NCBI GenBank assembly: GCA_964537195.1
Contig: CAZHYZ010000002.1
Span: 296 to 64,295, forward strand
Source of the DNA: an uncultured Methanosarcinales archaeon
Lineage (GTDB): Archaea > Nanobdellota > Nanobdellia > Woesearchaeales > GW2011-AR15
Direction: 5' to 3'
DNA length: 64,000 bases
The notes beneath the pieces are model-generated. The model was given only the letters and a program-made list of their open reading frames with translations. It was not told where the DNA came from and made no database searches. The position numbers and the translations under genes are program-made. This document shows, in pieces, positions 3,690-24,648 of this stretch (position 1 is its first letter; each line of letters starts with the position of its first letter).

Positions 3690-4256
3690 TTATCTCTTCT
3701 TTGTAAGCAATTTATCTATCTCTTTTTTCTCTATTTTCTTCTTTTCTTCATCAGAGAGTTTATCCTCAATTGATTTTTCTTCTTTGAGTTTTTCTTTCTT
3801 CTCTGTCTTTTTCTTTTCATCTGTTTTCTTGGTCTGTTTCTTTGTTTTCTTTAATTCTTCTTCCTTAATATTAATAAATTCTTCTGGATTTGGAATGTTT
3901 AGTATAGTTATTTTCTTCTTAACAAGTTCTTTCAAAATTGGAATTCTTTTTCTTAGTCCAATCTTCCCAGAAACAATTACTCCCTGTGTCTTTGGATTTA
4001 TCTGCTCAACTTGTACAATTGAAGCTAAATAAATTATGTCTAACCCAGAAAAATGCTTCCCTCTTAATTCTTTTGGTGTTCCATATCCTGGACCAACAAG
4101 GGGTTGATTCCTTATTCTGTTTCTTTGTTTAGAGTGCTCTCCTCTTGGTTTTCTCCATTTTTTAGAGAGTCTCTTTTTCTTATTTGCGTCTTGCCTGATA
4201 AAATTAGGATTTTTCTTCCTCTTCTCCTTCTTTGTGTCAACTAGATTTTTAGTCAT
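3690..4256 (-). CDS. rpl32e: 50S ribosomal protein eL32 with a charged C-terminal extension
   Basis: PNFIRQD...WRKPRGEHSKQR, VGPGYGTPKELRGKHFSG; about 55 extra K/E-rich residues at the C-terminus. Confidence 0.93.
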   Translation of the reverse strand: MTKNLVDTKKEKRKKNPNFIRQDANKKKRLSKKWRKPRGEHSKQRNRIRNQPLVGPGYGTPKELRGKHFSGLDIIYLASIVQVEQINPKTQGVIVSGKIGLRKRIPILKELVKKKITILNIPNPEEFINIKEEELKKTKKQTKKTDEKKKTEKKEKLKEEKSIEDKLSDEEKKKIEKKEIDKLLTKKR

Positions 4257-19747: not shown

Positions 19748-20086
19748 ATGGGGGCTCCAGAAGAGTTAGATAAAGAAATAGAGAAACTAAAACATGTCCC
19801 GATGATAATTGTCGAAGGAAAAAAAGACATTAATTCCTTAAATGAATTTGGAATCACTAATGTAGTAGAGATTCGGGGTCCAATTTATTTATTCTGTGAA
19901 GATATTGCAAAAAAACACAAAATGGTTGCAATTCTTACTGATTTGGATAAAGAGGGAAAGAAGTTATATTCTAAATTAAAAAAAGGTCTGGAAAAAAACG
20001 GAGTTAAGATTGATGATGTTTTCAGAAATTTTCTGTTTGAAGAAACCAAGATAACTCAGATTGAAGGATTATCTAATCTTCTTTAG
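19748..20086 (+). CDS. Small Toprim-domain protein (RNase M5/small primase-like); start set at ATG 19748
   Basis: IIVEGKKD and ILTDLDKEG Toprim motifs. Confidence 0.85.
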   Translation: MGAPEELDKEIEKLKHVPMIIVEGKKDINSLNEFGITNVVEIRGPIYLFCEDIAKKHKMVAILTDLDKEGKKLYSKLKKGLEKNGVKIDDVFRNFLFEETKITQIEGLSNLL

Positions 20087-22042
20087 TTTTATTATTGCAA
20101 ACACAATTAAGCAACCAACACCAATTATCAATCCTGGAAGAATGTTTTTTGATTTTTCTGAAGAGGATTCATAAATGACATTAGATGTAATTGGGTTGGT
20201 GTTGTTCATGTTATCTTTTTCTCCATTCAAATCATTATCTTCTTTTTTTTGTATAACATTCAATGTTTTTGTAATTTCAAATGGTGTTTTTCTTCCTTGT
20301 TTTTTTAGTTTAATCTTTATTTTATACTCCCCTTCATCAATTTCTAACAAATCATTCTCTAAGATTATAATTTTATTAGTGTTGTTCAAGACAACAAGGG
20401 TTTTTTTGTTGGCTTCTCTTTCTGCCGGATAGGATTTTGGTCCCCTAAAAACATAACTCCAGACAGAATAATTAAGAGGGTAATTCTCTTTGTTAAATAT
20501 TTCAATAACAGAGAACACAATGTTTCCTGTAATGTTTCCAGAATAAGCAAGCAATTGAACTTCTGGGTGTGCCTTGTTTTTTTCCTCCTCTGTTACACAT
20601 TCTACTATATTATCAATATCAACTCCAACTTGTGTTTTTACATCAAGTCCTTCAACAAATAAAGTATATGTTCCTGACTCATATTTACAATCTTCTTTAA
20701 GTTGTATTGGAAGAGTAATATCGTGGGTTCTGAAAGTCTCATAGATGTTAAAATAAGTTGTATAACTAACTCGTTCTCCATCATTTTCAACGTATGCTTT
20801 TATTGAGTTCTTAGATGTGTCTCCTTTGTAAACAGACACTCTTGATTTGATTGGCGTTCCAAAAACAATTTCATTAGATACTGAATAAACATTAAGAATC
20901 TCGATTTTAGATTTGTTTTCTTTTATTCCTTTAAAAACAACTATTTTTTCTTGAACTGTGTTGTTGTTTGAATTATTACATATTGCAGTGGTCAAATTTG
21001 ATTTTACAATAAATACTTTTTCTAGTTTGTCAAAGTTTGGTGTGAATTTCTTTGTGTTTGTGTTTTGAGTTATCCTTTTGTTTTTAACAACATTACCAAA
21101 CAGATCTTCCACCCAATATTCTATTTGAAAAGGAAATGTTTCGTTAGAGATTTTATTTATTATACTAATCGTTTCTCCTTGACCATAGATTATTTTATCT
21201 GTTTCCATCTCTAAAAAAACATGACACGGAATGTTCCTGCTCTCGATTGCCGAAATGTTTTGACAGTATCTCAGAGAGGAGTTTTTAAAAAAAAGTTCCC
21301 CACAAATAACATATTCACCAGAGACACTTATATTAATTGTACCTGTTTTGGTGGTATAACTAATAAAGGTGTGTTGAGAGACGTCCTCCCAAAAAAAAGA
21401 TGTGTTGATGGCAGTTAAGTTTTTGTAAAGGGACACATTAACCTTTTCTTTATTTTCTGGATAATTTAGCTTCTTAATTTTGAAAGGGGACAGATAAATA
21501 ACTTCTGTAAAGATCTTTGGGGGAAGAATAAACTCTAACGCTATCTTTGGTTCCGATGGTTTTTCTTTGTTTTCTATAAAAAAACCTAACGGTGTGGGCT
21601 CTGTAACAACCCAGGACCCATTAATCAGCGAAATAGATTTACCTTTTTCAACATTCAGTGAATAAGTTTGATTAATAACTGTTTTGTTCCCCTTAATTAA
21701 CATGATCTTATCGCCTTTGTTTCCAAGACCGTTGCCTAACTCATTATCGTCTACACAAAAATATAATGAGTTGTTTTGTTTTGAAAACGTGTTACTTTGA
21801 TCAAGAAGGAGAAAAAAGTTGTTTTCTGGAACAGACAAATTACATTTTTGATGACCACAACAAGTAAGGGTATCTTTTTGATAATTGTCCATAAAGTAAT
21901 ATTTTGAGAGATTAATCTCTGTATCTGTATATATTTCGACCCACTCATTCCCGTCTGTTGGATTATACATTATTTCTGTCAATTCAATAGCGGAGACACT
22001 AAAAGAAAACAGGAGAAACACAACTAAAAAAAGCTTTTTCAT
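20069..22042 (-). CDS. Secreted, membrane-anchored surface protein with an N-terminal lamin-tail domain
   Basis: Signal peptide; IELTEIMYNP...EWVEIY...LGNKGDKI lamin-tail motifs; beta-rich middle domains; C-terminal TM helix followed by KLKKIR. Confidence 0.75.
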   Translation of the reverse strand: MKKLFLVVFLLFSFSVSAIELTEIMYNPTDGNEWVEIYTDTEINLSKYYFMDNYQKDTLTCCGHQKCNLSVPENNFFLLLDQSNTFSKQNNSLYFCVDDNELGNGLGNKGDKIMLIKGNKTVINQTYSLNVEKGKSISLINGSWVVTEPTPLGFFIENKEKPSEPKIALEFILPPKIFTEVIYLSPFKIKKLNYPENKEKVNVSLYKNLTAINTSFFWEDVSQHTFISYTTKTGTINISVSGEYVICGELFFKNSSLRYCQNISAIESRNIPCHVFLEMETDKIIYGQGETISIINKISNETFPFQIEYWVEDLFGNVVKNKRITQNTNTKKFTPNFDKLEKVFIVKSNLTTAICNNSNNNTVQEKIVVFKGIKENKSKIEILNVYSVSNEIVFGTPIKSRVSVYKGDTSKNSIKAYVENDGERVSYTTYFNIYETFRTHDITLPIQLKEDCKYESGTYTLFVEGLDVKTQVGVDIDNIVECVTEEEKNKAHPEVQLLAYSGNITGNIVFSVIEIFNKENYPLNYSVWSYVFRGPKSYPAEREANKKTLVVLNNTNKIIILENDLLEIDEGEYKIKIKLKKQGRKTPFEITKTLNVIQKKEDNDLNGEKDNMNNTNPITSNVIYESSSEKSKNILPGLIIGVGCLIVFAIIKLKKIR

Positions 22043-22178
22043 GTCTTCTGTTCATCTTCTCTATTTTATATATTTTACTAAAATATTAGTATTAATAATA
22101 TGGAGTAGGTTGTTTTTTGTTGTTTTTCTACAAACAAAAAGCTTTAAAAAGTCTAATAAACTTATTTCTGGTAAGAAA

Positions 22179-23018
22179 ATGGGGTTTTTTGATAGTTTTA
22201 AAAAAAAGGCAGGTGAACAGAGTAATAAAGAGTCTTCTGAACAAATGCCACCTCCACCTAAAGCCAACATACCAAATGTGATTAAACCTCCAGAAAATTC
22301 TCAAATGCCGGCGCCTCCTCAAAAAAAAGAAGTTCCTGGAACTCCCGAACAACAAATTCCGCCCTTGCCACAGTCTAACCAACTAGAGAATCCTCCAAAA
22401 ATGCCTTCTCAATCTGCACCATACCTGAAAAAAGCAATCGCACCTGCTAAAAAAACAGACCTCCCATCACTTCCTCAACAAAATCCTGATCCTTTGTTCC
22501 AACCCTCGCCAGTAACTTCCCAAACCGCACCTTCTTCACCAAGTTTGCCAGAAGAAAAGAAACGTTCTGGTGTCCAGAAAGATCTTACTAATCTGCCAGC
22601 AAGAAACAATATTCAAAACCTGCCCCCTAGATTGCCCGAATTGCCTCAAAAGCTAATAAAAAGAGAGCTCCCAAAATATAATGTAAAGGAGATACCTTCT
22701 TTTGATATTGAACAAGAAATAGAAATGCCTATTCTTGAAGATCTTCCTTTACTAGATGTTGAGGAAAGAGAAGAAATTTATAAGAATTACAGACACAAAC
22801 ACATAAATAAACCTCTTTTTATTAGAACAGACGAATACAAAGAAGTTTTAGAGACTGTAAACAATTTTAAGAACTACTTATCTAATTCATTAGAGATGTT
22901 ATCCTCATTAGAAACACTGAAGAGAAACACAGACATGGAGCATAAAACATACAAAGAATCTCTTGAAGATATTCAAAGAAAACTAATTTATGTAGATAAA
23001 ACCCTTTTCAGTAGTTAG
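22179..23018 (+). CDS. Pro-rich protein with C-terminal helical hairpin (start set at ATG 22179, MGFFDSFKKK)
   Basis: Amphipathic N-terminus, long P/Q-rich linker, C-terminal domain similar to the next gene. Confidence 0.7.
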   Translation: MGFFDSFKKKAGEQSNKESSEQMPPPPKANIPNVIKPPENSQMPAPPQKKEVPGTPEQQIPPLPQSNQLENPPKMPSQSAPYLKKAIAPAKKTDLPSLPQQNPDPLFQPSPVTSQTAPSSPSLPEEKKRSGVQKDLTNLPARNNIQNLPPRLPELPQKLIKRELPKYNVKEIPSFDIEQEIEMPILEDLPLLDVEEREEIYKNYRHKHINKPLFIRTDEYKEVLETVNNFKNYLSNSLEMLSSLETLKRNTDMEHKTYKESLEDIQRKLIYVDKTLFSS

Positions 23019-23030
23019 GAGGACAAATTC

Positions 23031-23258
23031 ATGAAAAAAGACAAAAATGTGTTCGTGAAAATCGATGAATATAATGATATCCTTGATATTATTGCACTTG
23101 TGAATGCAAAAGTCAAAGAAGCTAGAACCACACTAAATAAAATCTACGACTTAAAGAATCAGGAAGATTCGGAACTTGAATCCTGGCAAGAAAGCTTAGA
23201 TGAAGTAGAAAGAAAACTAAAGTACATTGATCAAACCTTGTTTGAACCGAGATATTGA
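23031..23258 (+). CDS. Small helical-hairpin/coiled-coil protein of unknown function
   Basis: GGAGG Shine-Dalgarno upstream; VFVKIDEY...RKLKYIDQTLF is paralogous to the C-terminus of the upstream gene. Confidence 0.75.
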   Translation: MKKDKNVFVKIDEYNDILDIIALVNAKVKEARTTLNKIYDLKNQEDSELESWQESLDEVERKLKYIDQTLFEPRY

Positions 23259-23261
23259 AAA

Positions 23262-23597
23262 ATGAGCAAAGATTTTTTTGTTGGAATCTACGATCCCGTG
23301 GATGTTAGGAGAAACCTTCTTGAAAGTTCTAAATGTATTATTAAATCTCTTAAATCCTCAGATGAACTTAGTAACATAAGGGAAAAAAAGTTAAAATATT
23401 ATAAAAGGATGAGAAGAACGATGGAAGAACTTCACATTCTCATAGATAAATTAAAAGAACAATTGCCCAGGTCATATTTTGAAGAATCTGAGACAGGAAA
23501 GGGGGGGAAAAAAACAAAATCCAAAGTAACAAAAGAGCTTGAAAAATTAGACAAACAACTACAACAAGTCGAAAAAGAGCTTTCTTCGCTCAAATAA
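23262..23597 (+). CDS. Small coiled-coil protein of unknown function
   Basis: FFVGIYDP beta-start followed by long helices; tightly packed with the two preceding genes. Confidence 0.7.
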   Translation: MSKDFFVGIYDPVDVRRNLLESSKCIIKSLKSSDELSNIREKKLKYYKRMRRTMEELHILIDKLKEQLPRSYFEESETGKGGKKTKSKVTKELEKLDKQLQQVEKELSSLK

Positions 23598-23633: not shown

Positions 23634-24305
23634 ATGAAGACTTTTGTAATTATCCCTGCTTACAATGAAGAAAAAAGAATTGGTTCTGTACTTAAAGAGT
23701 TAAAAAAGAGATACAAATTTGTTGTTGTCGTGGATGATGGATCTAAAGACAAGACTTACCTTATTTCAAAAAAACACACCCAATATGTTCTGCGGCATGT
23801 TATAAACAGGGGGCAAGGAGCTGCCCTAAAAACAGGTATTGATTTTGCTCTAGAAAACGGTGCAGACATAATCGTAACGTTTGATGCTGATGGACAATTC
23901 CTTGTAAAAGAAATAAAAGACCTAGTAAAACCAATTAAGAAAAAAGAAGTAGACGTTGCGCTTGGCTCTAGGTTTCTAGGAAAAACCATTAACATGCCCT
24001 TTCTTAAAAAAGTTGTTTTAAAGATTGGTGTTGTTGTCATATTTGTTTTATATGGTATGAGAATTACAGACTCGCAATGTGGTTTTCGTGCTTTCTCAAA
24101 AACTGCTGCTAGAAATTTGGAGATAAAAGCGGATAAAATGGAACATGCTGGAGAAATACTCTCCGAAATAATGAGAAAGAAACTTAAATATAAAGAGATA
24201 CCTATAACTGTAATATATGATGAGTACTCTTTAGAAAAAGGCCAAAGTTGGTCGAAGAGTATTGCACTCGGCATAAGAATGTTGTTTAAGAGGTTAGTTA
24301 AATAA
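23634..24305 (+). CDS. Glycosyltransferase family 2 (DPM-synthase-like)
   Basis: IIPAYNEE, VVVDDGSKD, NRGQGAA, FDADGQ, DSQCGFR. Confidence 0.93.
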   Translation: MKTFVIIPAYNEEKRIGSVLKELKKRYKFVVVVDDGSKDKTYLISKKHTQYVLRHVINRGQGAALKTGIDFALENGADIIVTFDADGQFLVKEIKDLVKPIKKKEVDVALGSRFLGKTINMPFLKKVVLKIGVVVIFVLYGMRITDSQCGFRAFSKTAARNLEIKADKMEHAGEILSEIMRKKLKYKEIPITVIYDEYSLEKGQSWSKSIALGIRMLFKRLVK

Positions 24306-24306
24306 A

Positions 24307-24648
24307 ATGATTACTCCTGTACAAATAATCGCTTTAATCTTTGTAACTTTTGCTGCCAGTAGGGCCATACTTCGAGCAAAGGACAAAAAAATCACTTTTG
24401 GAGAATTAATTTTTTGGTTAGGCATATGGAGCGGACTTGTTTTTGTGGTATTCTTCCCAGATGTAACAACTCGAATTGCTAAACTTGTTGGAATAGGGAG
24501 GGGGATTGATGTTATAGTTTACATAAGTATATCCCTTTTATTCTATCTAATTTTTAGGTTATATGTGAAAATCGAAGAAACAGAAAGTGAGATAACAAAG
24601 CTTGTAAGAGAGATCTCATTGATGGATAAAAAAAAGAAGAAAAAATGA
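24307..24648 (+). CDS. DUF2304-family small membrane protein
   Basis: Three TM segments with GIGRGID motif and C-terminal EITKLVREI; usual partner of GT2. Confidence 0.85.
   Translation: MITPVQIIALIFVTFAASRAILRAKDKKITFGELIFWLGIWSGLVFVVFFPDVTTRIAKLVGIGRGIDVIVYISISLLFYLIFRLYVKIEETESEITKLVREISLMDKKKKKK

Follow-up and report, generated by a model that had tools for sequence, protein, structure and literature searches.

A conserved three-gene operon of Woesearchaeales encodes a putative membrane-tethered coiled-coil system

What does an operon of three small genes, none of which belongs to a described family, do in an archaeon of the DPANN group, whose cell biology is almost unknown, as few of its members can be grown? 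Here we analyse such an operon on the forward strand of a 64,000-nucleotide stretch of DNA (contig CAZHYZ010000002.1, positions 296 to 64,295; below, "the window" means this whole stretch), which has a G+C content of about 33% and comes from a DPANN genome of 1.24 Mb that is 97% complete. The products of genes 1, 2 and 3 are called P1, P2 and P3. An earlier note on this DNA, made from the letters alone, had taken them for a triad of related helical-hairpin proteins, one of them on a Pro/Gln-rich membrane tether, that could build a hetero-oligomeric filament or a membrane-remodelling module. What we find is a protein system that is real, large and without a name, and whose layout converges on that of known membrane tethers. 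We read it as a membrane-tethered heteromeric coiled-coil adaptor, to which, with its cargo included, we give a probability of about one in three; the architecture by itself, a membrane-tethered heteromeric coiled coil, is probably right. The operon is laid out as follows.

22179-23597, forward strand: the operon, three adjacent open reading frames (genes 1-3)
22179-23018, forward strand: gene 1, encoding the tether protein P1 of 279 amino acids (from the open reading frame and the layout of homologues)
23031-23258, forward strand: gene 2, encoding P2 of 75 amino acids, a free-standing copy of the P1 C-terminal domain (from the open reading frame and homologues)
23262-23597, forward strand: gene 3, encoding P3 of 111 amino acids (from the open reading frame and a family alignment)
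22143-22150, forward strand: TATA-like box TTTAAAAA, a candidate archaeal promoter read from the sequence, about 30 nucleotides before the MGFF start of P1
23018-23022, forward strand: GGAGG, Shine-Dalgarno-like, overlapping the stop codon of gene 1 and lying 8 nucleotides ahead of the gene 2 start

The three adjoining forward-strand reading frames are exactly where the earlier note had placed them, and they form one translationally coupled operon. Its synteny is strongly conserved, with the complete triad in 77 of 85 loci from named genomes and metagenomes and with median gaps, over 81 loci, of 5 nucleotides between the P1 and P2 genes and 2 nucleotides between the P2 and P3 genes (12 and 3 nucleotides, respectively, in the window). 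The placement of GGAGG, together with the short gaps, is consistent with translational coupling of the P1 and P2 genes, and TTTAAAAA would serve as the promoter of the operon. Although the first ATG of the gene 1 reading frame is at 22041, the start at 22179 is preferred because of the position of the TATA-like box and the conserved MG[FLI][FL] N-terminus of homologues. In the window, all three genes share one reading frame, separated by TAG plus 4 codons and by TGA plus 1 codon; this common frame was found in only 4 of 85 related loci and seems accidental.

The evidence on fold begins with the C-terminus of P1.

22806-23015, forward strand: P1 residues 210-279, the C-terminal domain, with a short strand-like PLFIRTDEY and then a single long heptad helix ending in KTLF (BLASTP, hhalign, AlphaFold2)

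The gapless alignment of this domain to P2, given in the earlier note, is borne out both by BLASTP (P1 210-277 against P2 4-71, 32% identity, 65% positives, E 2e-12) and by an hhalign comparison of the two families (probability 99.5%, E 1.3e-22), and judged from these alignments the P1 C-terminal domain and P2 are clearly paralogous. Across the family, the P1-type C-terminal helix ends ...IQRKLIYIDKTLFE. P2 has 123 close homologues of 69-89 amino acids (53-83% identity), almost all of them unnamed or "hypothetical" and the rare names apparently spurious; Y14 and W52 are invariant, and K42, N43, E45, D46 and E48 are conserved in at least 90%. Modelled alone by AlphaFold2 with 143 sequences, P2 forms one helix of 61 residues (11-71) with a mean predicted local distance difference test (pLDDT) score of 89.8, reaching about 98 over residues 21-60. 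Its a/d heptad pattern, with 3-4 spacing, is unbroken over residues 14-70 and runs through the conserved K42 and E45 at core positions. A read-through fusion, in which the P1 C-terminal domain, P2 and P3 were joined across the two stop codons between them, was modelled from an alignment of 31 similarly read-through rows and gave single long helices in P1 (217-273), P2 (14-71) and P3 (12-67) and a separate P3 helix (87-110); this model supports secondary structure only, as its short linkers force neighbours to be antiparallel and are too short for a parallel bundle. With a single helix per domain in both models and an unbroken heptad pattern, the helical hairpins of the earlier note give way to domains that are each predicted to form one continuous helix of about 55-60 residues.

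P3 carries a helix of the same kind in a different protein.

Within 23262-23597, forward strand: P3 residues 5-9, FFVGI; residues 12-67, a long heptad helix whose centre is basic (R40, K43); residues 68-86, the linker rich in Lys; residues 87-110, an acidic helix, ELEKLDKQLQQVEKELSSL

As described earlier, P3 opens with the FFVGI stretch (conserved as FFVGIxDP; family form FYVGIxDPxxVRRxxLES) and continues in long helices. The central P3-type helix has an invariant R40 and a near-invariant K43 and ends LPKTxLR. The linker is 25% Lys across the family, with a net charge of +13 per 100 amino acids, and leads to a conserved acidic heptad helix (ELEKLExELxxIExKLxxL) at the C-terminus, modelled in the fusion at a pLDDT of about 84-92. 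A basic N-terminal tail of at least 10 amino acids is present in 33 P3 homologues, and a C2H2 zinc finger stands in the Lys-rich linker of 2 of 87 (L033 978-1490, reverse strand, and one locus among L059-L138; for example FKCDRCDKEFKSRQSLTKHHKLH). The kinship of the triad holds for the P1 C-terminal domain and P2 and fails for P3: BLASTP of P2 against P3 gave no significant match, and hhalign scored the P3 family at a probability of 8.8% against the P2 family, through the P3 C-terminal helix only, and 0.6% against the P1 C-terminal domain family. MAFFT tended to place the P3 N-terminus on that of P2. Homology of P3 to the other two was rejected on the BLASTP and hhalign results, what they have in common being a gross pattern in which a long helix comes after a short hydrophobic stretch. 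The helix centres carry opposite charges, acidic in the P1 C-terminal domain and P2 (K-x-E-E-D-x-E-L-x-x-W, net about -3) and basic in P3 (about +1 to +2).

The remainder of P1 is made up of the following elements.

22179-22208, forward strand: P1 residues 1-10, MGFFDSFKKK, hydrophobic plus polybasic, a putative membrane-binding tip (motif comparison)
22245-22259, forward strand: P1 residues 23-27, MPPPP, of the form [LM][DE]hPPPP, a conserved short linear motif just after the tip
22209-22805, forward strand: P1 residues 11-209, a Pro/Gln/Glu-rich disordered arm (composition, 19% Pro)

The membrane-tether layout that had been proposed for P1, with tip, arm and C-terminal domain, stands. Homologues of P1 are 108-387 amino acids long and keep this layout throughout, with the conserved domain at the extreme C-terminus, and the ten longest P1-type homologues contained no Pfam domains or fusions. 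The long Pro/Gln-rich linker is likewise present: residues 11-180 are 21% Pro and 10% Gln, and family-wide the linker is 17.7% Pro, carries a net charge of -7 per 100 amino acids and has a median of 118 amino acids with highly variable length. P1 has no cysteine. The P1-type tip motif occurs in 72 of 86 P1 homologues (examples are MGFFDSFKKK, MGLFQKKSKG and MALFKNKK) and is similar in style to the SepF N-termini of the same order (MAGFFSKLKDKL, MRRFFDKVKDRV and MGFFGKIKEMI). In a genome-wide scan of N-terminal motifs, the strict form was found only in P1, and the loose form also in SepF and in many unspecific matches. The earlier note had called this N-terminus amphipathic; P1 does start with MGFFDSFKKK, but its hydrophobic moment is only moderate (0.56, against 0.89 for the SepF of its own genome; P1 family median 0.50, linker controls 0.43), and "hydrophobic plus polybasic" fits it better. 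From the motif, membrane binding by the tip is likely. A PPxP-type motif lies inside the first 90 amino acids in 66 of 86 P1 homologues. In one subclade (L101, L108, L115, L121, L122, L124, L129 and L136, with P1 genes ending near position 3970) the PPPP motif is replaced by a conserved block, MGWLFGKRK..VP.P....ALRFP....ERVIEP..VKEAVG, and in the aligned members L115, L121, L129 and L136 the P3 partner has Gln at the otherwise invariant Arg40.

These features also bear on whether a membrane is involved at all. The weak amphipathic moment of the tip, the conserved hPPPP motif, which suggests a proline-recognition partner, and the sequences of P1, P2 and P3, in which no transmembrane segment is visible, would suit a soluble coiled-coil complex of regulatory or chaperone-like function, with the Pro-rich arm as a protein interaction platform, some other role for the P1 N-terminus and no membrane link. 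Such a complex is improbable, given that throughout the class the tip is kept whereas the arm is free to vary, that the membrane-targeting sequences of SepF from the same genomes are very like the tip and that no proline-binding domain was identified.

Database searches leave the three proteins without a described relative, as the earlier note had supposed. Pfam and NCBIfam gave nothing above cut-offs for P1-P3, the weak matches being coiled-coil noise, and PDB profile searches, PHROGs and PADLOC gave only weak matches of coiled-coil type. Foldseek against the PDB returned generic coiled coils only (best E 0.15), with Vipp1 among them at E 0.24-0.33. The SepF core (PF04472) had no match in P1, P2 or P3 at E<=10, and hhalign of the three families against 27 same-order SepF sequences gave probabilities of 0.6-0.9%; a SepF relationship suggested by the likeness of idEY.DiLDI to leDFsDiKpILD was rejected, as the likeness spans 13 columns only, at a probability below 1%. 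Snf7 was matched neither in P1-P3 nor in the genome, and the MIT domain (PF04212) was not found in the genome at E<=1, where the PspA Pfam model was not searched separately. An ESCRT-like reading, with the P3 C-terminus as MIM1-like and the PPxP motif of P1 as MIM2-like, was dropped because the genome has neither MIT nor Snf7. The PRC barrel of CdvA had no match in general Pfam scans at E<=10, without a dedicated CdvA comparison, and sequences inspected by eye for a SNARE-like central polar layer or an RhxxhE trimerisation motif gave no support for either. P1-P3 belong to no described family and are not SepF, ESCRT-III, CdpC or Dip/Arco. The fold comparison with ESCRT-III, PspA and SepF that had been suggested for this locus ends in generic coiled coils, with no hairpin, no Snf7 and SepF below 1% by hhalign.

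One alternative is a self-assembling cytoskeletal or membrane-remodelling polymer of repeating hetero-oligomers, in which, for example, the acidic C-terminal helix of P3 would bind to the basic centre of the neighbouring unit to give a filament or lattice under the membrane. Long heptad helices, a conserved acidic P3 helix parted from the basic one by a flexible linker, and an invariant W52 with beta-branched core residues, which suggest a bundle larger than a dimer, would all be compatible with such a polymer, and the module is universal, as expected of a structural element. It is nevertheless quite unlikely: there is no similarity to ESCRT-III or PspA, the genome lacks Snf7 and MIT, the Foldseek matches are generic coiled coils at E of at least 0.15, P2 and P3 are short (75-111 amino acids), and there is no computed sign of polymerisation. 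Nothing found here points to the filament or membrane-remodelling module of the earlier note.

In the DPANN class to which Woesearchaeales belongs (GTDB Nanoarchaeia/Nanobdellia), the operon is a core feature and nearly universal. Of the genomes sampled across the phylum, a P2-domain profile matches 336 of 401 (245 of 281 genera), every match falling in the same order or the same class, and a class-wide profile (A6) gained matches in 14 of 20 apparent absences, at least 10 of them convincing and several with adjacent P1 and P2. Among 1.84 billion library representatives, the domain accounts for 3,987 clusters at 50% identity (E<=0.001); the 150 best matches, which are those listed, are all close family, and among the matches listed the domain stands at the extreme C-terminus of proteins of 100-390 amino acids or alone. 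P3 and P1 evolve faster than P2 and gave 12 and 2 matches, respectively, queries included. Because the operon is present in more than 85-90% of the high-quality genomes of the class and P2 is among the most conserved small proteins of the lineage, a basic role is very likely. The labels borne by relatives are Woesearchaeota, Nanoarchaeota or Nanobdellota. In the other orders of this class there is a single domain-bearing gene, of P1 type (135-250 amino acids), a P3-type gene usually comes after it, and a free-standing P2 is missing; the ancestral module is therefore P1 plus P3, with P2 a later duplication of the P1 C-terminal domain in the Woesearchaeales lineage. A viral or defence origin was considered and rejected, as viral contigs (IMG/VR) held no relatives and PADLOC and PHROGs gave only noise. 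Woesearchaeota-type operon contigs are also deposited under other names (L120, DATILO010000028.1, and many records with CAY and CAZ prefixes among L059-L138), and the deposit names "Candidatus Binatia bacterium" and "uncultured Methanosarcinales archaeon", the latter borne by the present assembly, are probably due to mis-binning or mislabelling.

How might the three proteins work together? A 60-residue amphipathic helix cannot stand alone, and therefore P1-P3 must form coiled coils; strict co-encoding, tight coupling and complementary helix centres argue for one joint complex. The hetero-oligomer of the earlier note is accordingly plausible, lone long amphipathic helices being unstable and the centre charges complementary. 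From here we infer membrane binding, hetero-oligomerisation and a cargo. The long helices of the P1 C-terminal domain, P2 and P3 would bundle with the acidic P1/P2 centre against the basic P3 centre, and P1 would hang this bundle from the inner face of the membrane by its flexible arm. The Lys-rich segments of P3 would hold a polyanion, with chromosomal DNA or another nucleic acid favoured and the FtsZ filament as the main alternative, and the complex would act as a membrane-to-nucleoid tether in segregation and division. DNA is favoured as the cargo on three grounds, the linker and tails rich in Lys, zinc-finger insertions that occur sporadically and the informational genes nearby, but the assignment is tentative. 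Recurrent neighbours among 80 Woesearchaeales loci, apart from a secreted-protein gene described below, are RNase J (29), a TrmB-like winged helix-turn-helix protein (26), PCNA (19) and ScpB (12), and in other orders the two-gene form is flanked by TFE, an S2P-like protease and AlaRS.

Several points weigh against this adaptor and its cargo. The fused model reaches a predicted template modelling score of only 0.45 and a pLDDT of 66.6, and its short linkers impose antiparallel packing. By sequence, the hydrophobic moment of the P1 tip is modest, with a family median of 0.50 against 0.43 for the linker controls. Lys-rich linkers are widespread where genomes are AT-rich, and their ligands could be acidic lipids or the acidic tails of proteins rather than DNA; the zinc-finger insertion is confined to the 2 P3 homologues already mentioned. 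ScpB and PCNA are syntenic in part of the loci only, which may be mere block conservation, and the operon has no constant link to any gene whose function is known. Finally, P2 is much more conserved (53-83% identity) than either the P1 C-terminal domain or P3, which hints at a further conserved partner beyond those in this model.

Such a slowly evolving partner could be FtsZ, which would fit the strong conservation of P2. P1 would then be a functional analogue of CdpC, SepF or ZipA, a Z-ring anchor or adaptor with its tip on the membrane, its disordered arm bridging the gap and its coiled-coil head, shared with P2 and P3, binding FtsZ, likely FtsZ1. The layout of P1 matches that of CdpC, and its tip resembles the membrane-targeting sequence of SepF, which in archaea with two FtsZs anchors FtsZ2 only (bioRxiv 10.64898/2026.07.16.738847). 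A canonical SepF and two FtsZ genes are encoded elsewhere in this genome, and among relatives FtsZ is present in 43 of 43 genomes, mostly in two copies, and SepF in 39 of 41. The profiling of co-occurrence with ftsZ that had been proposed for this module could be carried out and gives no signal, as FtsZ, SepF and the module are all near-universal in the class. Synteny is no more favourable, with no ftsZ, sepF or dip genes among the recurrent neighbour clusters annotated. There is also no homology to known FtsZ binders (no Pfam match, SepF below 1% by hhalign and no zinc ribbons in P1), and the distant multi-zinc-ribbon relatives that have been reported in Nanobdellota (bioRxiv 10.64898/2026.07.16.738847) could do the job instead. 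A Z-ring anchor is, on this evidence, a rather doubtful reading. Similarly doubtful is the fuller proposal of an essential, lineage-specific device, a heteromeric coiled-coil head on a proline-rich leash, by which Nanoarchaeia would fix FtsZ1 or else the chromosome to the membrane, a task for which other archaea use unrelated proteins.

The immediate surroundings of the operon raise one further possibility.

20069-22042, reverse strand: a divergent gene for a secreted protein of 657 amino acids with a signal peptide and a C-terminal transmembrane anchor (open reading frame; context, not a proven part of the system)
23634-24648, forward strand: a family 2 glycosyltransferase (GT2, PF00535) followed by a DUF2304 membrane protein, directly after the operon
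19751-20086, forward strand: a small stand-alone Toprim-domain protein of about 111 amino acids, between a fused primase gene and the surface-protein gene

The secreted protein has many N-x-S/T sites and, after its anchor, a cytoplasmic tail of about 4-6 residues. Pfam gave no match to it at E<=0.001, and its relatives are weakly annotated with a lamin-tail domain. Homologues stand divergently upstream in 43 of the 80 Woesearchaeales loci, where this is by far the commonest neighbour, and the GT2/DUF2304 pair also follows the operon in the AR15 genome (L004) and AR15-like genomes, although not in more distant relatives. Both neighbours speak for an envelope-linked module, which would work with the surface protein and, in this lineage, with the GT2 and DUF2304 genes and might organise or anchor the surface layer from the cytoplasm. 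However, the secreted-protein gene is absent beside the two-gene form in other orders, where the flanks named above take its place, the cytoplasmic tail of the surface protein is only those few residues long, and GT2 neighbours are confined to a few families, all of which makes this module very improbable.

We retain the membrane-tethered coiled-coil adaptor as our reading of the operon. The operon is a concrete candidate both for the membrane hold of FtsZ1 outside Halobacteria and for the coupling of chromosome, membrane and division in tiny cells. If the FtsZ1 version were true, it would be the missing anchor outside Halobacteria, convergent with CdpC; if the chromosome version were true, it would be a membrane-nucleoid link convergent with ZapB-MatP or RacA-DivIVA. 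Interest would be high should the operon prove to be the FtsZ1 anchor or the membrane-chromosome link of these archaea. Were it only a minor lineage-specific scaffold, it would still be a large unnamed family of about 4,000 clusters at 50% identity that merits a family definition. New here are the two-gene ancestral form, the unbroken heptad pattern with a confident single-helix model of P2, the charge complementarity of the helix centres, the quantitative negative against SepF, the size of the family and the modest hydrophobic moment of the P1 tip.

Among known systems, CdpC (HVO_0399) is the FtsZ1 membrane anchor of Halobacteria and consists of an amphipathic helix, a long linker that is disordered and a domain at the C-terminus (bioRxiv 10.64898/2026.07.16.738847). 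P1 likewise has a putative membrane element at its N-terminus, a long linker that is disordered and evolves fast, and at its C-terminus a conserved domain presumed to bind a partner, and both proteins are lineage-wide and change fast in sequence, but the match is one of layout only. CdpC has a zinc ribbon at either end, with zinc fingers that are essential, whereas the C-terminal domain of P1 is a predicted heptad helix and the sequences are unrelated; P1 is not a CdpC, because it has no cysteine, but it could be a counterpart by convergence. CdpC moreover consists of one protein, while the present operon encodes two or three helix proteins together.

The Dip/Arco system, which positions the divisome in archaea, is a three-gene operon for a Ras-like GTPase, a DUF2073/OapB SepF-like protein and a zinc-ribbon protein (PMC13228585; bioRxiv 10.64898/2026.07.23.738820). 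Like the present triad with its putative membrane tip, it combines membrane-binding and disordered components in three genes, and it is tied to FtsZ1-based division; unlike the triad, it has domains none of which were found in P1-P3 by Pfam or NCBIfam. Within DPANN, Dip has been reported only in Nanohaloarchaeota (2026 Dip preprint). The genome studied here encodes an OapB/DipB (DUF2073, PF09846) homologue of 132 amino acids (E 1.3e-21; L188 1020-1848, contig C12:~30100-30900, reverse strand), which adjoins a DipC/ArcoC-like protein of 129 amino acids with an N-terminal zinc ribbon; the contig ends directly after, and the DipA GTPase was not seen on it. A Dip/Arco system thus appears to be encoded separately from the triad.

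SepF (PF04472), which anchors FtsZ to the membrane in archaea and Gram-positive bacteria, shares with P1 the style of its N-terminal motif (MGFFDSFKKK compared with MRRFFDKVKDRV and MAGFFSKLKDKL), a linker and a C-terminal oligomerising domain (a predicted one in P1), but its alpha/beta core is missing from P1, P2 and P3. ZipA of E. coli, a bitopic FtsZ tether whose layout the earlier note had compared with that of P1, likewise has a flexible Pro/Gln-rich arm that joins its membrane anchor to the binding domain at its C-terminus; in contrast to P1, whose tip has only about 3 hydrophobic residues, it is anchored by a true N-terminal transmembrane helix and ends in a globular FtsZ-binding domain. 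ZapB of E. coli is a protein of 81 amino acids that forms one long coiled-coil helix, homodimerises and bridges ZapA/FtsZ to MatP-bound DNA. It was not among the Pfam matches of P2 at E<=10, and it pairs with itself, unlike P2, which is expected to form a hetero-complex with its tethered paralogue. As a small protein that is essentially one long heptad helix, as P2 is predicted to be, and that serves as a bridge in the linkage of division and segregation, ZapB offers the closest functional picture.

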